In this document: piece by piece, positions 8,950 to 50,026 of the stretch
Numbering within the stretch: position 1 is the stretch's first letter
Layout of the letters: each line of letters begins with the position of its first letter
Assembly: GCA_964416075.1 (NCBI GenBank)
Contig: CAYQDH010000002.1
Coordinates: forward strand, 1 to 50,026
Origin: an uncultured Anaerolineales bacterium
GTDB lineage: Bacteria > Chloroflexota > Anaerolineae > UBA1429
Reading direction: 5' to 3'
DNA length: 50,026 bases
Translations under genes and position numbers: made by a program
Notes under the pieces: generated by a model
Seen by the model: only the letters and a program-made list of their open reading frames with translations
What the model was told of the DNA's origin: nothing
Database searches by the model: none

Positions 8950-9036
8950 AAACCTCCGACTCATCACGCTCCCTCGAGGACGAATGAGCGTTAGGTGCGG
9001 GGAGCAATCCCCACGCCCGCCGTTAGCAAAGGAGGT
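8950..9036 (+). promoter_or_regulatory. Candidate Moco/Tuco (molybdenum/tungsten cofactor) riboswitch aptamer
   Basis: 5' CCUCCGA (8953-8959) pairs with 3' AAAGGAGG (9028-9035) as P1. An internal helix is CUCAU (8960-8964) with AUGAG (8984-8988). A hairpin is GGUGCGGGG (8994-9002) with CCCCACGCC (9009-9017). CCUCCGA...AAAGGAG matches my recollection of the Moco-motif consensus. It lies directly upstream of a W/Mo-pterin enzyme gene. Confidence 0.5.
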
Positions 9037-9082
9037 GGCCTCGTTGTGCCGATTCTGGCGCACGAAGGTCACCTCCTTTTTT
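9029..9082 (+). terminator. Intrinsic terminator / expression platform of the AOR leader
   Basis: AAGGAGGUGGCC (9029-9040) pairs with GGUCACCUCCUU (9067-9078) and runs into a U6 tract (9077-9082), whose first two U form the base of the stem, then AUUU. The 5' arm reuses the GGAGG that closes the putative aptamer P1. Confidence 0.6.
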
Positions 9083-9118
9083 ATTTCGGAAATCGGTAGT
9101 CTGTACAGAGGAGGAAAC

Positions 9119-10972
9119 ATGCAAGGCTATACTGGGAAAATGTTGGTCGTCGATCTGGGGCTGAGAACATTCGAGTCGCGGGCCATCCCAGAAGCATGGC
9201 TCAAGGATTTCCTGGGTGGTGAGGGAGTGGCGATGCGCCTCTTCTACGAACTGGTGCACCCCGACGCCGATCCCTTGGACGCCGTTCAGCCGATGATCTT
9301 TGCTACCGGGCCGCTCACGGGGACGGCAGCGCCATGCAGCGGGCGCTGCTGCGTCGTCTTTTACTCCCCCGCGACCGGCACACTCGGCGCGGCCAATGCT
9401 GGTGGGCACTTTGCCCCAGCGCTCAAGAGGGCAGGTTGGGACCTCTTGGTCCTACTCGGCCAAGCCGATAAGCCCGTCTACCTGTATGTTAACGATGATA
9501 AGGTAGAGTTCCGTGACGCAGCGCGGCTGTGGGGCCAGGGGGTGGCCGAAGCCGAAGATGCCATCGTGGCGGAGCTGGACGTAAAGGGGCTGCAGGTGGC
9601 TTCTATCGGCCCGGCCGGTGAAAAGGGCGTCAAGTTCGCCTCCATCATGACCGACAAACACCGTGCCTTTGGACGCGGTGGACCCGGCGCAGCGATGGGC
9701 AGCAAGCTGCTGAAGGCGGTCGCTGTCAAGGGCACGTTGCCCCTGCCGACTGCGGATCCTAAGGCGCTCCGTGAAGCGGCGACCCATGCCCGTGAAGAGC
9801 TCTTTGCCGAGGCCTTTGTCCGCGATGAGTTGCACCCCTTTGGCACCCCTTCCTTCTACGATTCTATCAACACCCTCGGTATCCTGCCTACCAAGAATTG
9901 GCAAAGGACCGAGTTCCCCCAATCGGTCGGTAAGTTGACCTACCACGACTACCACGAGACGCTACAGGTCAAGCCCTATGCCTGCTTTGGCTGCCCTATC
10001 GCCTGCGGGCGGTCCACCACCATTATCGAGGGCAAGTATGCGGGAATGCATGGGGGTGGGCCGGAGTATGAGACCTTGGCCGCTTTTGGCAGCAAGTGCC
10101 TGGTCACCGACATCAACGCTATAGCTGCTGCCAACCACACGGCAAACAACCTGGGGCTGGACGTAATCTCTTCGGGACAGGTGATTGCCACTGCTATGGA
10201 GTGGTACGAACAGGGGATCTTGACCAAGGACCTCACCGGCGGCCTGGAGCTCACTTGGGGCAACGGAGACGCCGTGGTCGAAGCCGTCAAGCTGATCGGC
10301 AAGCGCGAAGGAGTCGGCGATCTACTGGCGCTGGGCGTCAAGAGGGCCGCGGAGAAACTGGGGCCCGCTGCCGGCTATGCGGCCATGCATGTCAAAGGGC
10401 TGGAAATGGCGGCCGATGGGGTGCGGGCCAGTAAGGGCGAAGCCGTCGTGCACGCCACTTCGGCCCGCGGCGCCGACCACTTGCGGCCCTACGCCTCCAC
10501 CATCGATGCCTTTGGCTATCGTGAACCCCAATTGGGCATCGTCCAAGACGTCGACTACCTGGAGGATGGCCACAAGTCGTGGGTCAAGCCGCTCCAGGAA
10601 CTGAGCATGGCTACCAACATGTTGGGCGTGTGCCTCTTTGCCTCGATCACCCTGGCCATCAAGCCCGCCACCTGGGCCCGGTTGGCCTCGGCGGCCGTCG
10701 GCTATCCCATCTCCCAGGGCGATCTGCTCCTCGCCGCCGAGCGGGTGATCAATCTGGAGCGCATGGTCAACGCGCGCCTTGGATTTGATCGCAAGGATGA
10801 CACCTTGCCCCGGCGCTTCCTGGAGGAACGGGCTCCCGACGGGCGCGGCGAGGGCGAGGTCGTCGACCTGGCAGTAGCACTGGATAGCTACTATGAGTCC
10901 ATGGGTTGGGACCCAAAGACTGGACTCCCCACACGTGAGAAGTTGGCCAGCCTGGGCCTGGATTGGCTCTAG
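9119..10972 (+). CDS. aor: Aldehyde:ferredoxin oxidoreductase family (tungsto-/molybdopterin enzyme)
   Basis: MQGYTGKMLVVDLGLRTFESRAIP...FLGGEGVAMRL is a typical AOR N-terminal domain. It has a 4Fe-4S motif ACFGCPIACGR and long AOR domains 2/3. ATG 9119 is preceded by GAGGAGG. The track ORF starts at 8984, inside the leader. Confidence 0.9.
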   Translation: MQGYTGKMLVVDLGLRTFESRAIPEAWLKDFLGGEGVAMRLFYELVHPDADPLDAVQPMIFATGPLTGTAAPCSGRCCVVFYSPATGTLGAANAGGHFAPALKRAGWDLLVLLGQADKPVYLYVNDDKVEFRDAARLWGQGVAEAEDAIVAELDVKGLQVASIGPAGEKGVKFASIMTDKHRAFGRGGPGAAMGSKLLKAVAVKGTLPLPTADPKALREAATHAREELFAEAFVRDELHPFGTPSFYDSINTLGILPTKNWQRTEFPQSVGKLTYHDYHETLQVKPYACFGCPIACGRSTTIIEGKYAGMHGGGPEYETLAAFGSKCLVTDINAIAAANHTANNLGLDVISSGQVIATAMEWYEQGILTKDLTGGLELTWGNGDAVVEAVKLIGKREGVGDLLALGVKRAAEKLGPAAGYAAMHVKGLEMAADGVRASKGEAVVHATSARGADHLRPYASTIDAFGYREPQLGIVQDVDYLEDGHKSWVKPLQELSMATNMLGVCLFASITLAIKPATWARLASAAVGYPISQGDLLLAAERVINLERMVNARLGFDRKDDTLPRRFLEERAPDGRGEGEVVDLAVALDSYYESMGWDPKTGLPTREKLASLGLDWL

Positions 10973-12590: not shown

Positions 12591-15500
12591 ATGATACCGG
12601 AGCATGGCTCTCTTTCCCCTAGGACCGATCGGCATGCCGGGACGCAGGGAGGGGAAGCGGAGGCACTCCGTCGGGAGCGTGACCTGCTCTCGGCCGTGCT
12701 CGACACCGCTGGTTCGCTCGTGGTGCTCCTCGACCGCGAGGGTCGTATCGTCCGCTTCAACCGTGCCTGCGAGACGACGAGTGGATTCTCCTTCGCAGAA
12801 GCAAGAGGCCAGGCTCTCTGGGATCTATTCCTTGCCCCGGAAGAGGTCGATCCGGTCCGGGCGGTCTTTGAGCAGCTTCGAGCGGGCCAATTCCCCAACG
12901 AATACGAAAACCACTGGATAACTAAGGATGGGCAGCGCCGTCTGATCGCCTGGTCCAACACGGCCCTCCTGAGCCCCGACGGAGCGGTCGAATACATCGT
13001 TGGCACGGGCATCGACATCACCGACCGCCGGCAGGCTGAGGAGTTGCTACGCCAAGCCCGTGAAGCGCTTGAATCTCGCGTGGCTGAGCGGACCGCTGAA
13101 TTGCAGAGAGCGAGCGAGTTACTCGCCGCCCTGCACGAGACCGCCCTGGGTATACTAGGCCGCCTCGACCTGAACGAGTTACTGGAGGCTATCGTCACGC
13201 GCACGGCGAACCAGGTGGGGGGCTATGCGGCGATCTACCTGGTGGATCGTGCCACCGACGAACTCGTCGTCCGGGTCGTCAGCGGCGCCCCCAGCGATTT
13301 TGTCGGTTATCGGCTGAAGCGGGGCGAGGGCATGTGCGGCAAGATATGGCAGTTCGACCGGCCCATGCAGGTAGACCGCTACAACACATGGGACGGCCGC
13401 ACGGCCGTCTACCCCTACTCAAACCCCGACCCGCGGGTCGACCGGTCGATGGGGGTGCCGTTGCATTCCGGCCAAGAGGTCGTGGGGGTGCTGGGGATAT
13501 CACGGTCGAATACATCGCCGCCTTTTCGGCAGGATGAGCTAGATCTCGCCATCCGGCTGGCGCAATTGGCCTCCATCTCCCTGGACAACGCACGGCTATA
13601 TAGCTCGCTCCAACAGGGTTTTGCCCTGCAAAAGCTCGTCGGCCATATCTCTGCTCACTTTATCGACCTCGGCCCTTCGGAGGTCGACGCTGGCATCCAA
13701 TATGCGCTCCAGGCCATTGGCGAGTTCTCGGGCGTGGATCGCAGCTATGTGTTCCAGTTCTCGGGCGATGGCACGATCCTGGACAATACGCACGAGTGGT
13801 GCGCCGAAGGGATCCAACCGTACATAGATTCCCTCAGGGGCCTTTCCCGGGCGGCTTTTCCATGGTTCGTGGGCCAGCTGGAGCAGTTAAAAGTAGTGTC
13901 CGTGCCTCGCGTGGGCGATATGCCCCCGGAAGCGAGCATGGAGCGCGCGGAATGCGAGCGGGAGGCTATCCAGTCCATCATCCTCGTGCCCCTGGCGTAC
14001 CGTGGTATGCTGGTTGGATTCCTGGGCCTCGATTCCGTGCGGGTGGAGAAGCCCTGGACAGAAGACCTCACGACTCTGCTCACCATCGTCGGCGGCCTGA
14101 TCGTCAATGCCCTCGAGCACAAACGAGCGCAGGCCATCCAGGCCGGCCAGCGTCAGTTCTTGGAGCTGCTGGCCACCGGTGGGAGTTTTTCCGAGACGCT
14201 TCATACTCTGGTGCGCCTCATCGAAGATCAATGGCCGGGCATGCTCGGGCTCATCCTGCTCCTGGATGAGGATGGCAAGCACCTGCACATCGGCGCTTCG
14301 GTGAGCCTGCCGCAAGACTATGTCCGGTCCATCGAAGGGCTGGAGATCGGGCCCATGGTGGGGTCGTGTGGCACGGCCTGCTACCGCCGCGAGCGGGTGA
14401 TTGTGGAAGACACGGCCACCGACCCGCGCTGGGAAGGCCTGCGCGACCTGGCGCTCCGCTATAGCCTGCGCGCCTGCTGGTCGGAGCCGGTATTCTCCCC
14501 CAGCGGCCAGGTGGTGGGCACCTTTGCCATGTATTACCGCCAGCCCCGTGCGCCAAGCGAGACGGAGTTGCGCACCATCGAGATGGGTGCTCACCTGGTG
14601 GGGGTAGCTATTGAGCATGATCGGGCTGAGAGGGCACTGCGACAAAGTGAGGAAAGGTTCCGCAGTATCGTCGAACATGCCAATGTCGGAATAGCTATCG
14701 TTCAAGAGGCCCGCTTCCGGTTCATGAATCCTCACTACGCCGCCATGCTGGGCTACACCGTGGAGGAGATGCTCGGCACAGAGTTCATGGGGTACTGTAC
14801 GCCGGAAGAACGCGATCGCATCGTGGACTTTGATACGCGGCGGACCAGGGGCGAGCCCGTTCCCACGCGCTATGAGACATCCCTGGTGCACAAGAATGGT
14901 GGGTACGTCTATGCGGACGTGAGTGCCGGCCTTATTCCCTACGGCGGCCAAAAGGCCACCTTCGTCTTCCTGCGCGATATCACCGAGGAGCGGCGCACCC
15001 AGCAGGCCCTCCAGGAGGCCTACCGGACCTTGGAACTGCGCGTGGAGGAGCGCACGGGGGAATTGGCCGCGCTCAATGCGATTTCCGCTGTGGTCAGCCG
15101 CTCCCTCGATCTCCAAGAGATCATGAGCAGCGCCTTGGACAAGACTCTGGACGTCATGGGTCTCAGCGTGGGCGCGGTCTACCGCCTACAGGCAGAGCAT
15201 GGAGAACAGCCACCCAAGCCGCTGCTGCGCCTCATGGCGCAGCGGGGCTTGACCGAGGAGTTGGCGCGTCTTGTCGATCCCCTGCCGCTCTACGGGACCT
15301 TTGTCGAGAGCGCTGCCGTCCTTCAGCGGCCGGTCGTCTGGATGGTGGCCGACTATCCACAGGCGACCCTGATGCAGTACATGGAGAGGGTTGGCGTGCA
15401 CACAGCAGTCAGCGCGCCGCTCCTATCCAAAGAGACGATGGTGGGCGCGATGGTCGTGGGGTCCCCCAGCCAGCGCCTCTTCAGCGCGGAAGAGCTGTCG

Positions 15501-16742
15501 CTATTGTCGGCCATTGGCCAACAGATTGGCGTGGCTGTGGAGAATGCGCGCCTGTACGAGGCAGAACAGGCCCGTCGCCAAGAGGCCGAGCGGCGGCGGC
15601 AGGTAGCCGAAGGGCTGCGCGAAATCCTGGCCACTCTGAACTCAAGCCGCCCCTTGGGAGAGATCCTGAACTACATCGCGTCTCAGGCAAGTCATCTTCT
15701 CGGGAGCGATGCCACAGCCCTCTGCCGCTTGGACAGACAGACCCAGTTCCTGACCATCCAGGCTTCATATGGGCTGAGCTCCGAGTTCACGGAGCATATG
15801 GCCTTCCAAGTGGGCCGAGTGAGCATTATCGGCGAGGCTGTTCTCACGCGCAGGCCCACAACCACGTCGAACCTCGCCGAGCGGCTGTCTCGCGTAGATG
15901 TGGCACCAGAATTGAGAGAGTTGGTGGGGCGTTTTGCGGCACTGTACCAGACGGTGCTCGCCGTTCCCATGCTCATCAAAGACGAGACCTATGGAGCTCT
16001 TGCTCTTTACTACCGGTCTGCGCGCCAGTTCACAGAGGAAGAAGTCAACCTGGCGGTCACCTTTGCCGATCAGGCGGCCTTGGCGGTGGAGAACGCCCGG
16101 CTGCGCGGGCAGGCCGAGGAGGCAGCGGCTATGGAGGAGCGGGGCCGCCTGGCCCGCGAGCTGCACGATTCGGTGACCCAATCGCTCTACAGCGTGACCA
16201 TGTATGCAGAAGCCGCCGCCAGGCTCATGACGCCCGGGCACGAGGCTGCCGCCCAGCACTTGCGCGATGCACGGGACACGGCCCAGGAGGCGCTGCGCGA
16301 GATGCGGTTGATGATCTACCAACTTCGCCCGCCGGTGCTGGAGAAAGGCGGTCTGGCCGTCGCTCTCCAGGTGCGCCTGGACGCCGTGGAGCGGCGCGGC
16401 GGCATCCGCGCCGAGTTGTTAGTTGATGGCGAGGACCGGCTGCCGCCTGCCATTCAGGTGGAGCTCCACCAGATCGCCCAGGAGGCGCTTAACAATGCCC
16501 TCAAACACGCTCACGCCCACCAGGTTCAGGTGCGCTTGCGTTTTGGCCAGGCCCAAACCCGCCTGGAGGTCCAGGACGATGGCCTCGGGTTTGACCTTGC
16601 CGCTGCGCAGGCGGGAGGCGGGCTTGGCATCGCTGGGATGATGGAGCGCGCCCAGAAGATCGGTGGGCGACTCGAAATCGAGAGCGCCCCCGGCCGAGGG
16701 ACGCAAGTGTCTGTTGAGGTGCCTACCGGAGGTGGAAGATGA
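12591..16742 (+). CDS. Large soluble multi-PAS/multi-GAF sensor histidine kinase (HisKA_3 + HATPase_c)
   Basis: 1383 aa with no TM segments. It has a PAS-like N-terminus, repeated GAF-like blocks, a second PAS, further GAFs, the H-box LARELHDSVTQSLYS (NarX/DegS-type) and a C-terminal ATPase region (ALNNALKHA, DDGLGF, GGLGIAGM). RBS AAGGAGG precedes ATG 12591. Confidence 0.9.
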   Translation: MIPEHGSLSPRTDRHAGTQGGEAEALRRERDLLSAVLDTAGSLVVLLDREGRIVRFNRACETTSGFSFAEARGQALWDLFLAPEEVDPVRAVFEQLRAGQFPNEYENHWITKDGQRRLIAWSNTALLSPDGAVEYIVGTGIDITDRRQAEELLRQAREALESRVAERTAELQRASELLAALHETALGILGRLDLNELLEAIVTRTANQVGGYAAIYLVDRATDELVVRVVSGAPSDFVGYRLKRGEGMCGKIWQFDRPMQVDRYNTWDGRTAVYPYSNPDPRVDRSMGVPLHSGQEVVGVLGISRSNTSPPFRQDELDLAIRLAQLASISLDNARLYSSLQQGFALQKLVGHISAHFIDLGPSEVDAGIQYALQAIGEFSGVDRSYVFQFSGDGTILDNTHEWCAEGIQPYIDSLRGLSRAAFPWFVGQLEQLKVVSVPRVGDMPPEASMERAECEREAIQSIILVPLAYRGMLVGFLGLDSVRVEKPWTEDLTTLLTIVGGLIVNALEHKRAQAIQAGQRQFLELLATGGSFSETLHTLVRLIEDQWPGMLGLILLLDEDGKHLHIGASVSLPQDYVRSIEGLEIGPMVGSCGTACYRRERVIVEDTATDPRWEGLRDLALRYSLRACWSEPVFSPSGQVVGTFAMYYRQPRAPSETELRTIEMGAHLVGVAIEHDRAERALRQSEERFRSIVEHANVGIAIVQEARFRFMNPHYAAMLGYTVEEMLGTEFMGYCTPEERDRIVDFDTRRTRGEPVPTRYETSLVHKNGGYVYADVSAGLIPYGGQKATFVFLRDITEERRTQQALQEAYRTLELRVEERTGELAALNAISAVVSRSLDLQEIMSSALDKTLDVMGLSVGAVYRLQAEHGEQPPKPLLRLMAQRGLTEELARLVDPLPLYGTFVESAAVLQRPVVWMVADYPQATLMQYMERVGVHTAVSAPLLSKETMVGAMVVGSPSQRLFSAEELSLLSAIGQQIGVAVENARLYEAEQARRQEAERRRQVAEGLREILATLNSSRPLGEILNYIASQASHLLGSDATALCRLDRQTQFLTIQASYGLSSEFTEHMAFQVGRVSIIGEAVLTRRPTTTSNLAERLSRVDVAPELRELVGRFAALYQTVLAVPMLIKDETYGALALYYRSARQFTEEEVNLAVTFADQAALAVENARLRGQAEEAAAMEERGRLARELHDSVTQSLYSVTMYAEAAARLMTPGHEAAAQHLRDARDTAQEALREMRLMIYQLRPPVLEKGGLAVALQVRLDAVERRGGIRAELLVDGEDRLPPAIQVELHQIAQEALNNALKHAHAHQVQVRLRFGQAQTRLEVQDDGLGFDLAAAQAGGGLGIAGMMERAQKIGGRLEIESAPGRGTQVSVEVPTGGGR

Positions 16743-33236: not shown

Positions 33237-33265
33237 TTGTGCGCTCCGCCGTAGCTGGCTATAAT
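33237..33265 (+). promoter_or_regulatory. Sigma70-like promoter of the SWIM/MoxR/vWA operon
   Basis: TTGTGC (33237-33242), a 17-nt spacer, then TATAAT (33260-33265). It lies only about 20 nt before ATG 33286, so the leader would be very short or absent, with no SD. Confidence 0.4.
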
Positions 33266-33285
33266 AGAGTCATATCGTAGATCAC

Positions 33286-34677
33286 ATGACGGAATTCTAC
33301 ATGGCCTCGACCTTTAGCCAACAGCGGATCTTGGGCTTGGCTCCTGATACCCAGGTCGCCCATGCCGCCCGGAGTTTGGCCCACCCCGGCAAGTGGCAGA
33401 ACCTCGGTCTGGATGAGGGAGTCGCCTGGGGAGAGTTCCAAGGCTCGGGCAACAAGCCCTACCAGGTAGCAGTAGGCCTGGAGGGGCCTGCCTTTAAATG
33501 CAATTGTCCCAGCCGCAAGCGCCCCTGCAAACACGCCCTCGCCCTATTCATGCTCGCTGCCTACCAGGATAGCGCCATCCCTGCAGGCGAACGCCCTGTG
33601 TGGGTTGCGCAGTGGTTGGCCGGGAGGGCCAGCGTCAGGGAGCAAGAGAAGCGCGAGCCCCTAGCGGCCCAAGATACTCCCAACGAGGCCCCCTCACTCC
33701 CGATCGAGCCGGTGCGTGCATCCAAGCGCGGGGCGCAGCGGGAAAAACGGGTTCGGGAAGGGACTGGAGCGCTGGCACACTGGATGGAGGACCTGGCCCG
33801 GCAGGGGCTGGGCAGTGCTCAGAGCCAGCCTCCGGCTTTTTGGGATGAACAGGCTGCCCGGCTTGTGGATGCCCAGGCGCCGGGGCTGGCGCGGAGGGTT
33901 CGCGAGTTATCGACGTTTGCCCATTCCGGAGAGGATTGGCCTGCCCGCCTCCTCGATCACTTGGGACGGCTGCACCTCCTGCTAGAAGCCTATGCTCGCC
34001 TCGATCGCTTGCCCCTCGAGCTGCGTGAAGAGATCCGCTCACAGATCGGCTGGACGCAGGACCAGAGCGCCCTGCGGGACCAGGCCGGAGAGCGAGACGA
34101 TTGGCTGGTCGTCGGGCAGCGTATTACCGAAGAGGAACGCTTGCGCGTGGCCCGTACATGGCTCTGGGGCGTGCGCTCTCAAGTCGGGGTATTCACCCTG
34201 GACTTTGCTCCCCCAGGCAGACCTATCGAGTGCGCAATGATCCCGGGCACCCATCTCGATGCGACCTTGGTCTTTTGGCCGGGGCCCGTGCGGCAGCGCG
34301 CGTTGGTCAAGGTGCAACACGCCATCTCGCCCATGCAGGCCTTGCCCGGTTACTGCAACTTGGAAGTAGCCCTGGCGACCTTTGGCGCTGCCCTGGCCGG
34401 CGTTCCCTGGCTCGACCGCTTTCTCATGCCCCTGGCCGACGTGATCCCGGTGCGCCAGGGAAGCAATTGGCTGGTCTGCGATGTGGATCATCACGCCCTA
34501 CCCCTGGCGGTGGGCGAGATGGATGGCTGGCGCCTGACAGCGCTGAGCGGGGGATCTCCCCTCACGTTGGCCGGTGAGTGGGACGGAGAGCACTTGTCTC
34601 CCCTCAGCGCCTGGACGGCTAACCAGCTGATCCTGCTCACGGGCGAGAGCCTGCCCGATGGCGGGGGGCAGCGATGA
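33286..34677 (+). CDS. SWIM zinc-finger domain protein
   Basis: The SWIM signature CxCx(n)CxH is seen as FKCNCPSRKRPCKHALALF near the N-terminus. 463 aa. The stop overlaps the next start as ATGA. Confidence 0.8.
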   Translation: MTEFYMASTFSQQRILGLAPDTQVAHAARSLAHPGKWQNLGLDEGVAWGEFQGSGNKPYQVAVGLEGPAFKCNCPSRKRPCKHALALFMLAAYQDSAIPAGERPVWVAQWLAGRASVREQEKREPLAAQDTPNEAPSLPIEPVRASKRGAQREKRVREGTGALAHWMEDLARQGLGSAQSQPPAFWDEQAARLVDAQAPGLARRVRELSTFAHSGEDWPARLLDHLGRLHLLLEAYARLDRLPLELREEIRSQIGWTQDQSALRDQAGERDDWLVVGQRITEEERLRVARTWLWGVRSQVGVFTLDFAPPGRPIECAMIPGTHLDATLVFWPGPVRQRALVKVQHAISPMQALPGYCNLEVALATFGAALAGVPWLDRFLMPLADVIPVRQGSNWLVCDVDHHALPLAVGEMDGWRLTALSGGSPLTLAGEWDGEHLSPLSAWTANQLILLTGESLPDGGGQR

Positions 34678-36299
34678 GTGCTTGGGACGACCTCGTCGCC
34701 GTGGCGCTGGTGGGCACGGGCCAGGCCAGACCGGCTTCCCCGTTATTCGCTGGAAAGACCCGCTTGGACTTGCTCCTGACCAAGTTGGAGGATCAGCCCG
34801 TGGAGCAGCGGACGCTGGCCGCGGCGTCCGTGTTTTCCACCTGGCGCCGAGCCGGTATGCAGCCCCTCGAGTTCTCGGCGACGCCGGCAAAGGCCCCTGC
34901 GGAGGATCGCTCGCCCTGCCCCGAGGCAGCCGCCGGGCACCTGGAGCGCATCCTCCGGGATGAGACGCTCATGCCCGTGCTGCCCCAATGGCTCGCCGCC
35001 CTGGCCGCGGCGGCGCACAACCTGCCCCATCGTTGGCTGCCCGAGATCCTGGACCTGGCTTGCCGCCAGAAAGACCTACGGCCCTTGGTGCGCAACGTCC
35101 TTGGCCCGCGTGGGACATGGTTGGCTTGGCAGCGAGAGAGTTGGGTCGCTCTGCTGCTCCCCACGACACGCGAGGCGATCACCGATCGCTGGCAGAACGG
35201 CATCCTGCCCGAGCGCGCCGAGCTCTTGCAGCACGTGCGCCAGACAGACCCGGCGCTGGGACTGGAACTGGTCAGCGCAACGTGGGGGCAGGAGTCGCCC
35301 CGCGAGCGTGAGGCCTTCCTCCAGGTCCTGAGCGCGGGCCTGAGCATGGCTGACGAACCCTTCTTGGAAACCGCCCTGGACGACCGGCGCAAGGATGTGC
35401 GGCTGGCCGCCGCAGAGCTGTTGGCCGCCCTGCCCGGCTCGCGCCTGTGCCGACGCATGCTGGACCGGCTGGCGCCTCTGCTCCATTTCACCCCCGGAGG
35501 GCAGTCCGGTCTGGCCCGGCTGGGGTTGGGACGCAAGCTTGCCGTGGAGGTGATCCTTCCCGGCGAGTGCGACAAGGCTATGCTTCGCGATGGCCTGGAC
35601 CCCCACGGCATCGAGGGACTGGGGCCGCGTCAGGGCTGCTTGGTCCAGATGCTCAGCATGGTGCCACCCGAGATGTGGTGCGTGCGTTGGGACGTCGACC
35701 CGCAACGGGCGCTGGCTGCTTTCGTCAAAACCGAGTGGGAAGAAACGTTTCTCACCGGCTGGGCATTTGCCGCCGCACGTTACCGCGATGCGGCCTGGGC
35801 CGACGCCGTGATCTCTGTCCTCCTGCACAAGGTCCCGCAGTGGCGCGAGCAACCGACTCTCCAGGCCGGCACCGCTGCCCAACGGGCCGTGAAGCTGCTC
35901 TATCTCCTGTGGCCGGTGCTCTCGCCGGCGCGCCTGGAGGCCCGGGCGTTGGAATCACTGGGCTCTCGCTTGCCCCTCCAGAACACCCACGTCGTGGTGT
36001 CGTTGCTGGGGCGGTGTCGCCATCCGTGGAGTGAAACGTTGGGCCGGGCGATGCTTCAAGCCCTGCAGAGGGTGGTGCGTGAAGGGGATTCCTCCTTCGA
36101 TACCACATGGCCCCTCCGCCAGGATTTGAAGGAATACGCCCTGTATATGCCGCCCTCATTGGCTGTGCAGTCCGCCGAGGGATGGGATCGGAGCGGGTCG
36201 ATGTGGAACACCTGGAGTAGCGCCGTAGAGCAGTTCCAGATTATCCTGCAATTCCGCCACGATATGCTGGCGGCATTGCCACCGGCCGCGCCTGCCTGA
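34674..36299 (+). CDS. HEAT-repeat-containing protein (DUF5691-like partner of the SWIM protein)
   Basis: 541 aa, helical and Leu/Ala-rich, with a HEAT/PBS-lyase-like repeat DDRRKDVRLAAAELLAALPGS. It is translationally coupled to the SWIM gene. The DUF5691 label is from my memory of similar actinobacterial clusters. Confidence 0.6.
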   Translation: MSAWDDLVAVALVGTGQARPASPLFAGKTRLDLLLTKLEDQPVEQRTLAAASVFSTWRRAGMQPLEFSATPAKAPAEDRSPCPEAAAGHLERILRDETLMPVLPQWLAALAAAAHNLPHRWLPEILDLACRQKDLRPLVRNVLGPRGTWLAWQRESWVALLLPTTREAITDRWQNGILPERAELLQHVRQTDPALGLELVSATWGQESPREREAFLQVLSAGLSMADEPFLETALDDRRKDVRLAAAELLAALPGSRLCRRMLDRLAPLLHFTPGGQSGLARLGLGRKLAVEVILPGECDKAMLRDGLDPHGIEGLGPRQGCLVQMLSMVPPEMWCVRWDVDPQRALAAFVKTEWEETFLTGWAFAAARYRDAAWADAVISVLLHKVPQWREQPTLQAGTAAQRAVKLLYLLWPVLSPARLEARALESLGSRLPLQNTHVVVSLLGRCRHPWSETLGRAMLQALQRVVREGDSSFDTTWPLRQDLKEYALYMPPSLAVQSAEGWDRSGSMWNTWSSAVEQFQIILQFRHDMLAALPPAAPA

Positions 36300-36322
36300 C
36301 CTGTCACGCCTGAGGCTCCGTC

Positions 36323-36409
36323 ATGGCGAGAAACCCACGGGCTGCCGCCCCTGCGGTCTCAGATGACGTCCCAAGTACCGCAAGTTGCCTAACTTGCGGA
36401 TCTTGGTAA
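36323..36409 (+). CDS. Candidate mini-ORF 1 (28 aa) MARNPRAAAPAVSDDVPSTASCLTCGSW
   Basis: A complete ATG...TAA within repeat unit 1, with GAGG about 7 nt upstream. Whether it is coding is unproven, because the hairpin could explain the conservation instead. Confidence 0.3.
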   Translation: MARNPRAAAPAVSDDVPSTASCLTCGSW

Positions 36410-36414
36410 ACGTC

Positions 36415-36501
36415 ATGGCGAGAAACCCACGGGCTGCCGCCCCTGCGATCTCAAATGACGTCCCAAGTACCGCAAGTTGCCTAACTTGCGGATCTTGGTA
36501 A
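36415..36501 (+). CDS. Candidate mini-ORF 2 (28 aa) MARNPRAAAPAISNDVPSTASCLTCGSW
   Basis: A complete ATG...TAA within unit 2. The ATG is 5 nt after the previous TAA. It differs from copy 1 by V12I and D14N. Confidence 0.3.
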   Translation: MARNPRAAAPAISNDVPSTASCLTCGSW

Positions 36502-36506
36502 ACGTC

Positions 36507-36593
36507 ATGGCGAGAAACCCACGGGCTGCCGCCCCTGCGGTCTCAGATGACGTCCCTCGTACCGCAAGTTGCCTAACTTGCGGATCTTGGTAA
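36507..36593 (+). CDS. Candidate mini-ORF 3 (28 aa) MARNPRAAAPAVSDDVPRTASCLTCGSW
   Basis: A complete ATG...TAA within unit 3. It differs from copy 1 by S18R plus one synonymous change. Confidence 0.3.
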   Translation: MARNPRAAAPAVSDDVPRTASCLTCGSW

Positions 36594-36653
36594 ACGTCAT
36601 GAGCAGGAGCGGGTTTCGCGACGACGCATTCTCAGTTCACTGAGGAGTATACT

Positions 36654-37736
36654 ATGCCGGATATCCTACGCCAACATGCCGAACAGCAATTCGCCGAGGA
36701 GTTGGACCACCTGGCTCGTGCGGATACCCGGCCGCGCCCGCCCAATTGGCGCCTTTCTCCTTGGGCGGTGGCCACCTATGTTTTGGGCGGCGAGTTGCCG
36801 GACGGCTACCACATCACGCCCAAATACGTCGGCAGCCGGCGCCTGGTGGAGATCGCCATCGCCACGTTGGCTACGGACCGGGCGCTCCTCTTGTTTGGGG
36901 TGCCGGGCACCGCCAAGACCTGGCTCTCCGAGCACCTGGCCGCCGCCATCGCCGGCGATTCGACGCTCGTCGTCCAGGGCACGGCGGGCACCAGCGAGGA
37001 TGCCATCCGCTACGGTTGGAATTACGCCCGGCTGCTGACCGACGGCCCCTCCGAAGCTGCCCTGGTGCCTAGCCCCGTCATGCGCGCCATGCTGGAGGGC
37101 AAGATCGCCCGCGTCGAGGAGCTGACGCGCATCCCTTCGGACGTGCAAGATGCCCTCATCACCATCCTCTCTGAGAAAACCCTGCCGGTGCCTGAGCTGA
37201 AATCGGAGGCCCAGGCCATCAAGGGGTTCAATGTCATCGCCACGGCCAACAACCGCGACCGGGGGGTCAACGAGCTATCCAGCGCCCTCAAGCGTCGCTT
37301 TAACACGGTGGTGCTGCCGCTCCCCGCCACAGCCGAGGAGGAGACGAGCATCGTGTTGACCCGGGTGGAGGCCCTGGGCCAGGTGCTGGAGCTGCCCGCC
37401 GAAAAGCCGCCCCTGGAGGAGGTGCGGCGCGTGGTAACTATCTTCCGCGAGCTGCGCGAGGGCGTAACCTCCGACGGTAAGACCAAGCTCAAGTCGCCGA
37501 CCAGCACCCTGAGCACCGCCGAGGCCATCTCCGTGGTCAATAGCGGCCTGGCCATGGCTGGGCATTTTGGCGACGGGTATATGCGGGCCTCCGACATGGC
37601 CCCCGGCATCACGGGGGCCGTCATCAAGGACCCGGTGCAGGACCGTGTCGTATGGCTGGAATACCTGGAGACGGTGCTCAAGGAGCGCAACGGCTGGAAG
37701 GATCTGTACCGCGCCTGCCGGGAAGCTGTTATGTGA
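36654..37736 (+). CDS. MoxR-like AAA+ ATPase (AAA_5 type)
   Basis: Walker A LLFGVPGTAKTW. The Walker-B-region is KIARVEELTRIPSDVQDALITILSEK, with EE where DE is usual. Sensor-1 VIATANN and an RRF arginine are present. RBS GAGGAG is 6 nt upstream. Confidence 0.85.
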   Translation: MPDILRQHAEQQFAEELDHLARADTRPRPPNWRLSPWAVATYVLGGELPDGYHITPKYVGSRRLVEIAIATLATDRALLLFGVPGTAKTWLSEHLAAAIAGDSTLVVQGTAGTSEDAIRYGWNYARLLTDGPSEAALVPSPVMRAMLEGKIARVEELTRIPSDVQDALITILSEKTLPVPELKSEAQAIKGFNVIATANNRDRGVNELSSALKRRFNTVVLPLPATAEEETSIVLTRVEALGQVLELPAEKPPLEEVRRVVTIFRELREGVTSDGKTKLKSPTSTLSTAEAISVVNSGLAMAGHFGDGYMRASDMAPGITGAVIKDPVQDRVVWLEYLETVLKERNGWKDLYRACREAVM

Positions 37737-37744
37737 GGTCCTAG

Positions 37745-40102
37745 ATGACTGTCCACGTCTTTGGCATCCGCCACCATGGTCCAGGTTCGGCACGTACCCT
37801 GCTGGCTGCGCTGGAGAGCCTGCGCCCCGATGCCATCCTCGTCGAGGGGCCACCTGAGGGGGAGGAGCTATTGGGCGCGGTGCTCCATCCCGACATGCAA
37901 CCCCCTGTAGCCCTGCTGGTCTATGTCCCTGATGAGCCGCGCCGAGCGGGCTTTTACCCCTATGCCCTGTTTTCGCCCGAGTGGCAAGCCATCCGCTATG
38001 GCCTGGAGCACGGCGTCCCGGTGCGGCTGATCGATCTGCCGCAGAAGCATTGGCTGGCCCTGCGCCAGGAAGAGGCGCAGGCTCCACCGGCGCCAAGCGC
38101 CTCGGCACCCAGTGCCGCGCCCGATGATGCCCCGACGCCGGCGCCCCCACCGCAGCCCGTGGACCCCTTGGATGCGTTGGCCCTGGCCGCGGGCTATGAG
38201 GATGGCGAGAACTGGTGGGAGCATCTCATCGAGGAGCGTCCCACCGGTGGGGAGAACCGGGCCGCCGCAGCCCTGGATGTCTTTGCGGCGGTCCAGGAGA
38301 TGATGGGTGCCCTGCGTTCCAGTGCGCCACTGGATGGGCAGAGCCCCGAGGCCGTGCAATCACTAATGAGGGACCCCTTACAGCCACTGCGCGAGGCGGC
38401 GATGCGCCGGTCGATCCGTATCGCCGAGCAGGCCGGGTACCAGCGGATCGCCGTGGTGTGCGGGGCCTGGCACGTGCCGGCCCTCGTCTCTACAGCGCCT
38501 GGAGACGACGACCTGTTGGCAGGCTTGCCCGAGGTCCCGGTCAAGCTCACCTGGGTGGCCTGGAGTTACGAGCACCTGTCGCGTTTCAGCGGTTACGGTG
38601 CGGGGGCCATCTCGCCCGCCTGGTACGAGCACTTGTGGCGCACGGCGCCATCGGGCCATGTCGCCGTGCTCTGGCTGACGCGCGTTGCCCAGTTGTTGCG
38701 CCAAGAGGACCTGGACGCCTCGGCGGCCCAGGTCATCGATGCCGCCCGCTTGGCCGATGCCCTGGCCGGCGTGCGCGGGCGCTCCCGCCCGGGTTTGGCG
38801 GAGCTGCGCGACGCGTGCCTGGCCGTCTTTTGCTTTGGCAATCCCGCGCCCATGCGCCTGATCTCACACCAGTTGATCATCGGCGACCGCCTGGGCCAGG
38901 TGCCGGCGGGGCTGCCGATGGTGCCGCTCTACCAGGACCTCGTGGCGACCGAGGGCCGGCTGCGTTTCCCGCGCCAGATGAGCGCCAAGCAACACGATCT
39001 CGACCTTCGCCAGCCGAATGATCTCGCACGCAGCCGGCTGCTCCACCGCCTGCTCGCCCTGGATGTGCCATGGGGCAAGCTTGAGGCCGCCAGGCATGGT
39101 GTCAAAGGTACATTTCACGAAGTGTGGACCCTGCAATGGCAGCCGGAATTCACCATCCGGGTGATCGAGCGGGCCATCTGGGGCAACACCATAGCCCAGG
39201 CCGCCAACACGTATCTCGTGCACCAGGGTGAGACGGCCCCGGAATTGGCCGCCCTCATGGAATTGCTGGACTGTGCGCTCCTGGCTGACCTGCCTGCGGC
39301 GGCGGCTCATCTCATCGCCCTGTTCCAGGCTCGTTCGGCCCTATCGGGCGACGTCGGGCGCTTGATGGACGCCTTTCCCCCTTTGGCCCGGGCGTTACGC
39401 TATGGCACCGTGCGGCAGAGTGCCGCTCTGGTGGGGGGAGGAGAGATGGCTGCCCTTGGCCCCAGCGCCATCGCCCCCATCCTCAACGGCTTGGGGGCGC
39501 GCATCTGCATTGGGCTCCCCATAGCCTGTGCCTCTTTGGACGATGACGCCGCGCAGCAGATGTTGCAGCGCATCGAGGCGGTGCAGAGCGGCCTAGCGGT
39601 GGTAGACCTGCCGGAGCTAACGGCAAGCTGGCAGGCCACATGCCGACAGTTGGTCGACCAAGGAGGCTTGCATGGGCTGCTCGCCGGCCGCTGCTGCCGG
39701 TTGTTGCTCGATCAGCGCCTTCTGAGCGCGGAGGAGGTTGCCCGCCGCTTGAGCCTGGCCTTGTCGCGCGGCAACGACCCGGCCCAGGGCGCAGCCTGGT
39801 TGGAGGGCCTGCTCCGTGGCAGCGGCCTGCTGCTCATCCACCAGGGTGGGCTGTGGAGCGTCCTGGATCAGTGGCTCGCGGGATTGGCCCCCGAGGCTTT
39901 TGTCGCCGTGCTGCCCTTGCTGCGCCGCACCTTTTCCGCCTTTCCGGCTCCCGAGCGCCGCCAGATGGGCGAGCGCGTGCGCCGAGGGCCGGCGCACATG
40001 GTGCTCGGCGACCGGGATACGAATATCGACACGCACCGTGCAGATGCCACTCTGCCGCTGCTGGCCCGCTTGCTGGGCCTACAAGAGGATGGCTCACCAT
40101 GA
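37745..40102 (+). CDS. Large DUF5682-like protein (785 aa) with TraB/TIKI/ChaN-like N-terminal pattern
   Basis: N-terminus VHVFGIRHHGPGSARTLLAALESLRPDAILVEGPPE, then a Pro/Ala-rich linker (QAPPAPSASAPSAAPDDAPTPAPPPQPVDP), then a long helical region. The stop overlaps the next start (ATGA). The DUF5682 label is from memory. Confidence 0.65.
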   Translation: MTVHVFGIRHHGPGSARTLLAALESLRPDAILVEGPPEGEELLGAVLHPDMQPPVALLVYVPDEPRRAGFYPYALFSPEWQAIRYGLEHGVPVRLIDLPQKHWLALRQEEAQAPPAPSASAPSAAPDDAPTPAPPPQPVDPLDALALAAGYEDGENWWEHLIEERPTGGENRAAAALDVFAAVQEMMGALRSSAPLDGQSPEAVQSLMRDPLQPLREAAMRRSIRIAEQAGYQRIAVVCGAWHVPALVSTAPGDDDLLAGLPEVPVKLTWVAWSYEHLSRFSGYGAGAISPAWYEHLWRTAPSGHVAVLWLTRVAQLLRQEDLDASAAQVIDAARLADALAGVRGRSRPGLAELRDACLAVFCFGNPAPMRLISHQLIIGDRLGQVPAGLPMVPLYQDLVATEGRLRFPRQMSAKQHDLDLRQPNDLARSRLLHRLLALDVPWGKLEAARHGVKGTFHEVWTLQWQPEFTIRVIERAIWGNTIAQAANTYLVHQGETAPELAALMELLDCALLADLPAAAAHLIALFQARSALSGDVGRLMDAFPPLARALRYGTVRQSAALVGGGEMAALGPSAIAPILNGLGARICIGLPIACASLDDDAAQQMLQRIEAVQSGLAVVDLPELTASWQATCRQLVDQGGLHGLLAGRCCRLLLDQRLLSAEEVARRLSLALSRGNDPAQGAAWLEGLLRGSGLLLIHQGGLWSVLDQWLAGLAPEAFVAVLPLLRRTFSAFPAPERRQMGERVRRGPAHMVLGDRDTNIDTHRADATLPLLARLLGLQEDGSP

Positions 40103-41268
40103 GCGATACGTTGCAGCCCAGCACCGTCCCTGGGGAGGACGAGCGTCTGCGTCGCTGGCGGCTTGTCCTGGGTGGCGGCGATGCCGACAGCATCGCTCTC
40201 CCCCTCGATGATCTGGATCTGGGGATGGATCGCACGCTGAGCGCCCTCTATGACTCGGAGCGCAGGGGAGGGCTCGGCGCATCGGCCCCACACGTGGCGC
40301 GCTGGCTGGGGGATATCCGCACCTATTTTCCCTCCTCCGTCGTCCGCATCTTGCAGCGCGATGCCATGGAGCGACTAGGGCTTCGGCAGATGCTCGCCCA
40401 GCCCGAGCTGCTGGCCTCCATCGAGCCGGACATCCACCTGGTGGCCTCGTTGGTGATGCTCAAGGACGTCCTGCCGGCCAGAACCAGGGACACGGCCCGC
40501 CAGGTGATTCGCCAGGTGGTGGAAGAGGTCGAGCGGCGGCTGGCCCAGCCGCTGCGCCAGGCCGTGCAGTCGAGCCTGGACCGCGCGGCCCGCACCCGCC
40601 GCCCGCGCCACCACGAGATCGACTGGCAGCGCACCATCCGCGCCAACCTAAAGCACTATCAGCGCCGCTACCGCACCATCATCCCCGTTCAACGCATAGG
40701 CTTTGCCCGCAAAGGGACGGGCCTGCGAGACATTATCGTCTGCATCGATCAAAGTGGCTCGATGGCTGCTTCAGTGGTCTATGCTGGTATCTTGAGTTCT
40801 GTGCTGGCCTCGCTGCGGGCCATCCATACGCGCGTCGTCGCTTTCGATACCTCAGTGGTGGACCTCAGCGATCTGCTTTCCGATCCCGTCGAGCTGCTCT
40901 TTGGCACCCAGCTGGGTGGCGGAACCGATATCGACCAGGCCCTGGCCTATTGCCAATCCCTGATCCGGAGCCCCCACGATACCATCCTCGTACTGCTCAG
41001 CGACCTGTACGAGGGGGGCGACCAGGGCGCCATGGTGGGCCGCATCAGAACGATGGTCGATATGGGTGTGCAGGTCATAGCCTTGTTGGCGCTGAACGAC
41101 CGGGGTGCGCCCTCCTACAACCATCCCCTGGCGAGCGCCCTGTCGAGCATGGGTGTCCCGGCCTTTGGGTGTACGCCCGACCAATTCCCCGACTTGATCG
41201 CGGCGGCTATCCAGCGCCAGGACCTCACGGTCTGGGCCACAAGCAGCGGCATCGCACCCGCAAGGTGA
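40099..41268 (+). CDS. von Willebrand factor A domain protein (CoxE-like), complete MIDAS
   Basis: From MSDTLQPST. MIDAS residues are DQSGSM (DxSxS), GGGTDI and LLSDLYEGG. The track ORF (39640..) is an artefactual 5' extension over the preceding gene. Confidence 0.85.
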   Translation: MSDTLQPSTVPGEDERLRRWRLVLGGGDADSIALPLDDLDLGMDRTLSALYDSERRGGLGASAPHVARWLGDIRTYFPSSVVRILQRDAMERLGLRQMLAQPELLASIEPDIHLVASLVMLKDVLPARTRDTARQVIRQVVEEVERRLAQPLRQAVQSSLDRAARTRRPRHHEIDWQRTIRANLKHYQRRYRTIIPVQRIGFARKGTGLRDIIVCIDQSGSMAASVVYAGILSSVLASLRAIHTRVVAFDTSVVDLSDLLSDPVELLFGTQLGGGTDIDQALAYCQSLIRSPHDTILVLLSDLYEGGDQGAMVGRIRTMVDMGVQVIALLALNDRGAPSYNHPLASALSSMGVPAFGCTPDQFPDLIAAAIQRQDLTVWATSSGIAPAR

Positions 41269-49025: not shown

Positions 49026-50026
49026 CTATCCCAACCGTCCGATGCGCGCCAGCCCGTCGGCCACATCACCCATCCCCAGCGCCTCCAGGCTCGCGCGGGT
49101 CGGGTACCCGTTGCTGGGACTCCAGCCGCGCATCTCGTAATAGCGGTCCAGCATCGGACTAAAGCGCTCCAGGTCGAGCACCACGCCATCGCTAAGGGCG
49201 GGTTCGGTCATCGTCTGGGCCGCGGACCAATCCACGGTGCGGTTGCGGTCGTGGTTGCGCACATCGACAGCCCGTAGTTGGTTAAAGATGCGCGAGCCTG
49301 CCTCCGTGAGCGTGGCTAAATCGGTCTCCTGGCCCGTGCAGGCCGAATAGAGCTTGGCCATCATCTCCGTATCCGCCGCGCGATCCTCGCTCTCCATGCT
49401 AAAGATGCGTGGCTGTTCATAGTCGCACAGCGTCAGCGATTCTAATAGCATCCCCCAGTTGTGATGCAGGATGGCCGGGATCACCTTCGTATCCGGCTTG
49501 TCGTATGTGTACGCGGGGTTATACACATCCGGCTCCCCATACACTCGCTCGCAGATGGCCCGCGCCTGTTCGGCGGTCACCGGCCCGCGGTTCGGACCGT
49601 GCTCTGGCAGGTAACTGAGCAGATGGGTCGTATAGGCGTGGGTTGAATCGCTGGCCGGATCGCGCGTATCCACGCAGAACTGCAGCACGGGCACCAGCCA
49701 AAAAGGAAAGTAGGGCCGTCCGCCCGTGCCCCAGTGGGCATTCCAATGGTTTGTCTGCCCAAAGCGCCGGGGGTAGATCCGGTCGAGGAGTGGCGCTCCC
49801 GCACCGCCAAAGAGGCGCTCCGCGGCATAGCAAGCGCCATCGGCCAGCGCGTCGCCCAACTCCCCCTCTCTCAGCGCTATCGTGCGCACCATGTTGATCG
49901 TGAACTCCGGCGACTGTCGCGGCACATCCTCCAGATAGTGGATCTCCTTATCCGGCACGGGGATGGGGATGCCGTCGATCGTATCGATCAGGCCATGTTG
50001 CTTGCACATCATCAGCCAGGGGATGA
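49026..50026 (-). CDS. Second aldehyde:ferredoxin oxidoreductase family gene (C-terminal two thirds; N-terminus beyond window)
   Basis: The frame is open to the window end (…IPWLMMCKQHGL…). The AOR domain 2/3 pattern runs to ...YYEMRGWSPSNGYPTRASLEALG, mirroring the end of the first AOR (YYESMGWDPKTGLPTREKLASLG). Confidence 0.85.
   Translation of the reverse strand, partial: IPWLMMCKQHGLIDTIDGIPIPVPDKEIHYLEDVPRQSPEFTINMVRTIALREGELGDALADGACYAAERLFGGAGAPLLDRIYPRRFGQTNHWNAHWGTGGRPYFPFWLVPVLQFCVDTRDPASDSTHAYTTHLLSYLPEHGPNRGPVTAEQARAICERVYGEPDVYNPAYTYDKPDTKVIPAILHHNWGMLLESLTLCDYEQPRIFSMESEDRAADTEMMAKLYSACTGQETDLATLTEAGSRIFNQLRAVDVRNHDRNRTVDWSAAQTMTEPALSDGVVLDLERFSPMLDRYYEMRGWSPSNGYPTRASLEALGMGDVADGLARIGRLG

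Follow-up and report, generated by a model that had tools for sequence, protein, structure and literature searches.

A five-gene MoxR AAA+/vWA module of the ddrTUVWX and YehL type, shared across bacterial phyla, in an uncultured Anaerolineales bacterium

Two described bacterial operons come closest to the locus analysed here. In Deinococcus deserti, five genes (Deide_18730-Deide_18690), the first encoding a SWIM protein and the last a CoxE-like VWA protein, were named ddrTUVWX; radiation raises expression of ddrT, the SWIM gene, over 10-fold and that of three others over 5-fold, in an IrrE-dependent manner, and the operon is preceded by a radiation/desiccation response motif (RDRM) operator, which together with ddrT is conserved in several Deinococcus species (PMC5552922). 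Its authors stated that the function was unknown (Blanchard et al. 2017, PMC5552922), and reviews have repeated this (PMC6300522, PMC8072749). Escherichia coli K-12 carries yehL (AAA), yehM (DUF5682), yehP (VWA) and yehQ (SWIM) in this order. Mutation of hns/stpA raises yehL and yehM (PMC3686432), and PMC3893208, citing an earlier classification, gives YehL as the name of one of seven MoxR subfamilies. Here we describe a related five-gene locus on a 50,026-nt stretch of DNA from an uncultured Anaerolineales bacterium (contig CAYQDH010000002.1, positions 1 to 50,026; hereafter the window, meaning this whole stretch). The first-pass annotation of the window gave no assigned function for gene sets of this kind. 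Our literature searches on DUF5682, DUF5691 and yehLMPQ likewise found no paper on function and none that assigns one experimentally. The published name ddrTUVWX and its regulatory phenotype had been missed.

The five genes are co-directional and intact, all lie on the + strand and follow the order SWIM-DUF5691-AAA-DUF5682-VWA. The SWIM gene (33286-34677) encodes a DdrT-like protein of 463 amino acids (aa). The module had initially been taken to begin at 33237, a position that is out of frame and offers no start codon; the first in-frame start is 33286. An ATGA overlap (34674-34677) joins this open reading frame (ORF) to the gene for the 541-aa, DdrU-like DUF5691 protein (34674-36299). The gene for the MoxR AAA+ ATPase (36654-37736; 360 aa, DdrV/YehL-like) is separated by 8 nt (37737-37744) from that of the DUF5682 protein (37745-40102; 785 aa, DdrW/YehM-like), and a second ATGA (40099-40102) links the latter to the gene for the CoxE-type vWA protein (40099-41268; DdrX/YehP-like), which is 389 aa long when counted from the ATG overlapping the DUF5682 stop codon. 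Both overlaps and the gap are as first described, and every motif quoted then (SWIM, Walker A, VEEL, MIDAS) was found in the translations. Three of the four junctions are tight; the exception is a 355-nt spacer between genes 2 and 3. Pfam searches placed the five products in the families predicted for them (SWIM, DUF5691, AAA_5, DUF5682 and VWA_CoxE), while four of these products have no NCBIfam model. A hydrophobic segment typical of a membrane span was seen in none of the five proteins, which marks the system as cytoplasmic.

We regard this locus as almost certainly an intact and typical member of the ddrTUVWX / YehL-subfamily MoxR-vWA module. The opposite explanation, that the genes are neighbours by chance or decaying remnants, could draw on the repeat-filled 355-nt spacer that interrupts the operon. 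Intact ORFs and motifs, full-length Pfam matches, the recurrence of the gene order in 51 of 56 loci and a close relative without the insertion (L083, see below) all stand against it, and we give it practically no credence.

A pattern scan for DUF5682, restricted to one genome per species, yielded at least 583 confirmed loci, of which the best 80 were kept. According to their record titles, these 80 loci come from Cyanobacteria and their non-photosynthetic relatives, Chloroflexota, Acidobacteriota, Armatimonadota, Clostridia, Actinomycetota, Gamma- and Betaproteobacteria, Deinococcota, Planctomycetota, Verrucomicrobiota, Myxococcota, Bacteroidota and Desulfovibrionales; the module is thus present in at least 14 bacterial phyla. 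The exact SWIM-DUF5691-AAA-DUF5682-VWA order was found in 50 loci, with exceptions mostly at contig ends. Among the loci with enough flanking sequence, 49 of 56 possess all five genes and two more carry them with SWIM and DUF5691 fused (together 51 of 56), so the five-gene order does recur across phyla. The commonest arrangement at every junction is a four-nucleotide overlap. The module is inherited as one unit. Median identity to the window protein (52 loci) falls from 72% for the AAA protein through 58% (VWA), 45% (DUF5682) and 39% (SWIM) to 30% for DUF5691, a gradient in keeping with a conserved engine whose targeting part varies. When 699 flanking ORFs were clustered, no recurrent family emerged except DUF4132 in five Chitinophagaceae loci, and we therefore consider the module to be self-contained. 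The 145 nearest neighbours, searched with Pfam and PADLOC, comprised transporters, regulators and glycosidases, with no enrichment of defence genes.

Some loci depart from this arrangement. A DUF5682 gene stands alone among unrelated neighbours in a Leptolyngbyaceae genome (L043), in two Bacteroidota (L055 and L056) and in an unclassified metagenome-assembled genome (MAG; L022), and 1.1-2.4 kb separate the AAA gene from the DUF5682 gene in two cyanobacterial loci (L006 and L007); the operon is therefore sometimes split. Two Deinococcota loci contain a small extra ORF between the AAA and DUF5682 genes (L085, 6768-7004, 78 aa; L025, 9636-10004, 122 aa).

The correspondence with ddrTUVWX could be drawn gene by gene. 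On plasmid p_TS293_3 of D. taeanensis we found SWIM, DUF5691, AAA, a 78-aa ORF, DUF5682 and VWA in this order, and the published description of the ddrTUVWX operon of this species places a 78-residue gene between ddrV and ddrW (PMC9510100). As the 78-residue gene matches, DdrT is the SWIM protein, DdrU the DUF5691 protein, DdrV the AAA protein, DdrW the DUF5682 protein and DdrX the VWA protein. The window proteins share 36, 34 (local), 70, 40 and 47% identity with D. taeanensis DdrT, DdrU, DdrV, DdrW and DdrX, respectively (BLASTP, E values from 4e-7 to 0).

The relation to E. coli is partial. The first-pass annotation saw the same gene set in yehLMPQ; this applies to three-fifths of it, since YehL, YehM and YehP are homologues of the window proteins (41, 27 and 34% identity; for YehL over the full length, E = 6e-79), while YehQ shares the finger only and DUF5691 is missing. 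BLAST of YehQ (614 aa) against the window SWIM protein returned nothing significant, the Pfam SWIM finger being all that both have in common, and no DUF5691 gene was found in E. coli. Comparisons by hhalign of the SWIM and DUF5691 profiles with YehQ and YehI were not significant and gave no support to either protein as a replacement for DUF5691. Upstream of yehL lie yehF (WGR), the molR/yehH pseudogene, yehI (DUF4132; region L001, 5280-8912) and yehK. We found matches to yehLMPQ in 5353 of 5426 complete E. coli genomes, covering at least 80% of the region in 5210 of them, usually as a single copy and chromosomal in all but three places. The operon is therefore near-core in E. coli.

The large DUF5682 protein matches its Pfam family over the full length (E = 7.2e-249, 828.4 bits). 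Its AlphaFold2 (AF2) model, built with 45 sequences (predicted local distance difference test score, pLDDT, 84.5; predicted TM-score 0.77), consists of an alpha/beta domain at residues 1 to ~285 (the N-domain, 37745-38599) and an all-helical region at residues ~300-785, a scaffold of about 500 residues. A Foldseek search of the PDB with the full-length model returned generic helical repeats only. When the N-domain was modelled alone (pLDDT 81.5), the three best domain-spanning Foldseek matches were a Tetrahymena complex IV subunit (E = 0.06), the erythromycin esterase EreC (6xcq, E = 0.078) and ChaN (2g5g, E = 1.7); the latter two are members of the TIKI/TraB/EreA/ChaN superfamily. Across 82 N-domains, including that of the distant YehM, the residues G7, R9, H10, E34, E79, D97, R216, E217, C239, G240 and H243 are invariant, and positions also conserved in YehM mostly fall within this domain. 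A putative set of two histidines, two glutamates and one arginine is placed after strands 1 and 2 and after a late strand of the model. What defines the TIKI superfamily is a core of parallel strands bearing a 2His/2Glu site, with a basic residue close by (PMC6254334), and the invariant H10, H243, E34, E79 (and E217) and R216 correspond to the site and basic residue of this description. Comparison by hhalign with the family of YbaP, a TraB-type protein of E. coli, was colinear with all four motifs in register (DUF5682/YbaP: FGIRHHG/LIGSIHMG, ILVEGP/LIVEAD, REAxMR/RNxAWR and VVCGAWH/VAVGALH). TraB_PrgY_gumN (PF01963) matched four of the 82 N-domain fragments (best E = 1.3e-4) and was the only foreign Pfam family to match more than two of them. 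Searches of the PDB with the profile of the 82 N-domains gave spurious matches only, and those with YbaP detected no solved TraB relative. The N-domain is rather probably a hydrolase of the TIKI/TraB/EreA/ChaN type, a likeness that is suggestive and not statistically significant; this reading, suggestive as it is, is new here. A metal cluster in the C-terminal part found no support, since its cysteines vary among 80 sequences.

The AAA+ protein (Pfam AAA_5, E = 8.4e-38) displays a Walker A motif (G82VPGTAKT89), a sensor-1 (N199/N200) and candidate arginine fingers (R214/R215). At the Walker B position it reads R153-V-E155-E156-L (residues 153-159, R-x-E-E-L-T-R), with Glu replacing the usual Asp. 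This VEEL had been noted as a departure from the usual hDE; it is present as described and is a trait of the family, the Glu-Glu pair being the same in each of 64 homologues, E. coli YehL among them. Judging from these alignments, the pair is a signature of the YehL MoxR subfamily, to which we assign the protein by YehL homology and DUF5682/VWA synteny. The vWA protein matches VWA_CoxE (PF05762; E = 3.2e-50, 171 bits vs a cut-off of 26.4) and contains a complete metal ion-dependent adhesion site (MIDAS), formed by D217QSGS221 (D217-x-S219-x-S221), T276 in GGGTD and D302 in SDL. The Walker A, sensor-1, RR-pair and MIDAS residues are at least 95% conserved, most of them invariant (for D217, S219, S221, T276 and D302, at least 95% in 59 sequences), and the motor looks active from its sequence. 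Only the AAA+ protein has solved relatives by sequence, namely the AAA domains of midasin (best PDB match, E = 1e-12) and NorQ; PDB searches with the SWIM, DUF5691, DUF5682 and vWA proteins found no usable match.

These affinities bear on one of the two functions that the first-pass annotation had proposed, an NTP-driven maturation machine. A dedicated machine of this kind would mature, or insert a cofactor into, an enzyme whose gene lies elsewhere, with DUF5682 as the large subunit that holds the cofactor or client. Class I chelatases (Mg, Co) are composed of an AAA+ subunit (BchI/CobS), a vWA subunit (BchD/CobT) and a large substrate subunit (BchH/CobN), an organisation that the triad of AAA protein, large protein and vWA protein mirrors. 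Membership of the vWA protein in the CoxE family, the matches of the AAA+ protein to NorQ structures and weakly to GvpN and MadB, and the presence of the haem-binding, TIKI-fold ChaN among the fold matches point the same way, and near-core status in E. coli together with a constant architecture would fit a housekeeping role. However, no client or cofactor-pathway gene recurs at the 40 loci, unlike in the cox, nor and cbb cases, and the invariant His/Glu/Arg set looks catalytic, unlike a chelatase site. Such a machine would also leave unexplained the radiation induction under DdrO and the associations with SWIM, WGR and DUF4132, and we found no report in the literature of a metalloenzyme defect tied to yehLMPQ. 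With no conserved client gene, this proposal does not hold up well, and we consider it unlikely.

The two remaining proteins are the most variable. The SWIM finger C72-x-C74-x6-C81-x-H83 (residues 72-83; Pfam 22.6 bits vs a cut-off of 19.6) has its signature conserved in 56 homologues; beyond it lie a low-complexity linker (~105-165) and a poorly conserved C-terminal part. The product of gene 2 matches DUF5691 over its full length (E = 3.5e-125, 419.7 bits) and, at a median identity of 30%, is the fastest-evolving of the five components. Its initial label as a HEAT-repeat protein is weak: it has a lone match (E = 0.65) to 4xvp 'BGFP-C', which we take to be an artificial HEAT-like repeat protein, but no Pfam HEAT model matches at E <= 0.01, and a helical, HEAT-like character is presumed. 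Single-protein fusions of SWIM and DUF5691 occur in one Planctomycetota MAG and one Chloroflexia MAG (L062, 5634-8618, 994 aa; L041, 5997-8894, 965 aa), Rosetta-stone evidence that the two proteins work together. In a Trueperaceae MAG, the module (L025, 8515-17481) lacks SWIM and DUF5691 genes and consists of AAA, the 122-aa ORF, DUF5682, a NADAR-domain gene, VWA and a 1125-aa WD40 beta-propeller protein; the WD40 protein in place of the pair hints that SWIM/DUF5691 is exchangeable.

The second function proposed initially was a conflict or defence sensor, which would make the module a MoxR-vWA system of the 'ternary' type. Here, SWIM/DUF5691 would sense an invader or damage, and the AAA+/vWA pair would set a threshold and then release DUF5682, a TIKI-like toxin or protease that would kill or arrest the cell. 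MoxR-vWA pairs are core to four described conflict systems (PMC7159879), and the TIKI superfamily includes toxins such as RRSP, with the toxin proteins PMT and HopBA1 sharing the fold (PMC6254334). The putative sensor components, SWIM and DUF5691, evolve fastest, and the Trueperaceae locus swaps them for the 1125-aa WD40 protein and adds the NADAR gene. In addition, yehL and yehM are silenced by H-NS/StpA (PMC3686432), and prolonged depletion of DdrO leads to an apoptosis-like death via effectors that are unknown (PMC6300522). On the other hand, PADLOC yielded no match for the DUF5691, DUF5682 and vWA proteins, a match of the AAA+ protein to IetA over the P-loop only (E = 3e-4) and a weak one of the SWIM protein to PDC-S62 (E = 1.4e-4, 74 residues). 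The score for the bpMoxR model, 22.7 bits, falls short of its cut-off of 27 bits. The architecture is nearly invariant, while conflict systems swap their effectors (criteria in PMC7159879), and genes flanking the module at 40 loci are not enriched in defence functions. No copy occurs in 2.9 million viral contigs, a single one among 50,697 phage records, and 32 plasmids out of 72,556 carry the module, most of these being non-mobilizable; in E. coli it is near-core and mainly single-copy chromosomal. With generic PADLOC matches only (ATPase, SWIM), no defence-island signal and almost no presence in phages, a defence sensor appears improbable.

We tentatively favour, with rather less than even confidence in the mechanism as a whole, a hydrolase or remodelling machine that is gated by ATP and aimed by a variable pair of proteins. 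The MoxR AAA+ ring (DdrV/YehL-like) and the MIDAS vWA adaptor (DdrX/YehP-like) would form an ATP-driven remodelling pair that acts on or with the DUF5682 protein (DdrW/YehM-like). The N-domain of the latter would most likely be a TIKI/TraB/EreA-type peptidase or esterase with a 2His/2Glu/1Arg centre, mounted on the 500-residue helical scaffold. SWIM and DUF5691 may act as one fast-evolving subunit pair, sometimes one polypeptide, that selects or senses the target. The weakest step is the role, which could be linked to stress and possibly to DNA damage, with an unlinked protein or nucleoprotein as substrate; we suggest it because induction by DNA damage in Deinococcus is the only experimental handle. 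This gated machine would account for the fixed set of five parts, for the fusion of SWIM with DUF5691 in some genomes, for the gradient of conservation and for invariant residues that look catalytic.

A possible DNA-damage connection has three independent, if indirect, supports. The first is the radiation/desiccation response regulon, to which ddrTUVWX belongs; we found an RDRM-like palindrome just upstream of D. taeanensis ddrT as well. The second is the adjacency of DUF4132 genes in Chitinophagaceae and in E. coli, the latter also with a WGR gene upstream. In D. radiodurans, the DUF4132 protein DRA0166 and the WGR protein DR2173 are DdrO targets, induced by mitomycin C and dependent on IrrE (PMC8533742). 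In the five Chitinophagaceae loci (L042, L054, L057, L072 and L076; ~13420-16430), a gene for a DUF4132 protein of ~980 aa follows directly after VWA; the one such protein scanned, from L057, carries HEAT_2 repeats. The third is a remark in PMC8533742 that E. coli MolR, the pseudogene of which is a neighbour of yehI, was described as LexA-regulated. We found no canonical LexA box in the E. coli yeh region around the molR pseudogene. A generalised link to the SOS response found no support, with no LexA box at 57 operons and no CTGTN8ACAG above chance in the E. coli yeh region.

Several results weigh against the gated machine and its proposed role. With regard to the hydrolase, Foldseek found nothing for the N-domain at E <= 0.001, with TM-scores of 0.22-0.32; the colinear hhalign matches of the N-domain profile to YbaP alone and to the YbaP family are not significant (for the family, P = 0.19); and the PF01963 matches to N-domain fragments fall below the gathering score. 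A Walker B Glu, where Asp is usual, could point to an ATPase that is slow or regulatory, and the interaction of all five proteins is a proposal made from sequence. In the window, genes 1 and 2 may be uncoupled from genes 3 to 5 by the spacer insertion. With regard to the role, the DNA-damage link consists of transcription in one genus only. Upstream of 57 homologous operons, including the window and E. coli promoters, LexA boxes of four types did not occur above chance, and no RDRM-like site precedes the window SWIM gene; the RDRM is a feature of the Deinococcus regulon and not of the protein machine. D. radiodurans is without ddrTUVWX (PMC6300522), hence the operon is not needed for radioresistance as such.

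A more specific version of the gated machine would be a bacterial protein-removal machine for damaged chromatin that clears DNA-protein crosslinks or trapped complexes after genotoxic stress. In this version, SWIM/DUF5691, joined by WGR/DUF4132 in some lineages, would recognise DNA-bound or damaged nucleoprotein, the vWA MIDAS would grip it, the MoxR ring would pull, and the TIKI-like DUF5682 domain would cleave. In function, this could be a counterpart of eukaryotic p97/Cdc48 with SPRTN/Wss1, or of midasin; we consider it quite doubtful, more so than either of the two alternatives above.

The spacer between the DUF5691 and AAA+ genes sets the window locus apart. It contains a tandem repeat of a 92-bp unit in 3.1 copies (36319-36601, 283 bp; Tandem Repeats Finder score 538, 96% matches) that occurs nowhere else in the window. 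Each unit holds two hairpins, and the predicted RNA fold of the spacer reaches z = -6.8 vs shuffles. The closest relative, L083 (DUF5682 91% identical), has the same five genes but lacks the tandem repeat; its spacer measures 68 nt, and another element, short and palindromic, occupies the repeat's position. The junction measures -4 nt in 25 of 65 loci, which makes the 355 nt of the window atypical. The repeat is a lineage-specific insertion outside the conserved module. Rfam, promoter and terminator scans across the operon returned nothing meaningful. A perfect TATAAT (33260-33265), not reported by the consensus promoter scan, lies 20 nt before the start of the SWIM gene, where neither a -35 element nor a Shine-Dalgarno sequence is recognisable; the transcript may thus have a very short leader or none.

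The surroundings of the operon in the window comprise polysaccharide and sugar-acid catabolism, an energy-coupling factor transporter and two genes for tungsten-type aldehyde:ferredoxin oxidoreductases (8984-10972 and 49026-50012, the second truncated by the window end). The polysaccharide-degradation set includes a glycoside hydrolase, a sulfatase, heparinase II/III and two enolase-superfamily dehydratases, and a radical-SAM gene and a 1383-aa PAS/GAF histidine kinase are also encoded. None of these tungsten, radical-SAM, kinase and polysaccharide genes is conserved beside the module elsewhere. The catabolic and tungsten-enzyme context, pointed out at first, carries no information, because flanking genes vary in the 40 other loci.

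The value of these results lies in the family and not in the window locus, which is one more typical member with a lineage-specific repeat. Operons of the YehL type occur in nearly all genomes of E. coli and span at least 14 phyla. Three lines kept apart in the literature searched, the Pfam DUF pair, yehLMPQ and ddrTUVWX, are now joined. The large subunit may hold a TIKI-type hydrolase centre, and SWIM and DUF5691 may be one variable targeting unit; these readings are open to experiment in tractable hosts.

With CoxD/CoxE, NorQ/NorD, CbbQ/CbbO, RavA/ViaA and the class I chelatases, the module shares an AAA_5-type ATPase and a CoxE-family MIDAS vWA protein; unlike the Cox-, Nor- and Cbb-type pairs, it has no linked client and includes three extra obligatory partners, SWIM, DUF5691 and DUF5682. 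Eukaryotic midasin/Rea1, likewise of the AAA_5 type, gave the AAA+ protein its best sequence match in the PDB. It joins AAA_5 modules with a MIDAS domain that grips substrates for stripping from a large particle, whereas in the window the ATPase and the MIDAS reside on separate small proteins, with no evidence of a link to ribosomes. The ternary conflict systems (VMAP, iSTAND, FtsH and beta-propeller; Kaur et al. 2020, PMC7159879) also combine a MoxR AAA+/vWA pair with dedicated components, among them proteins with helical repeats and, provided that the TIKI reading holds, a hydrolase effector; the window module has no VMAP, iSTAND, FtsH or propeller domain, and the architecture is constant in 51 of 56 loci, with one WD40-bearing variant (L025). 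The DUF5682 N-domain would resemble TIKI, TraB/PrgY/GumN, EreA and ChaN in its alpha/beta fold with a helical insert and in the order of its invariant motifs, with a His after strand 1, a Glu after strand 2, an Arg and a G-x-x-H after a late strand, a similarity that stays under the significance level in all tests. Unlike the described TIKI superfamily, it is fused to a unique 500-residue helical region, and its AAA+/vWA operon setting is undescribed for that superfamily. Compared with yehLMPQ, the window module differs from the E. coli order AAA-DUF5682-VWA-SWIM, from its lack of DUF5691 and from its upstream DUF4132 (YehI) and WGR (YehF) genes, and agrees in the AAA+, DUF5682 and vWA homologues, a SWIM gene in the operon, the EE Walker B and the His/Glu/Arg set of the N-domain. 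Closest of all is ddrTUVWX: the window locus has no RDRM-like site, a host other than Deinococcus, the 283-bp repeat between genes 2 and 3 and, unlike in D. taeanensis, no 78-aa gene at its 8-nt junction, yet both operons consist of the same five families in identical order, and each product of the one is homologous to its counterpart in the other.

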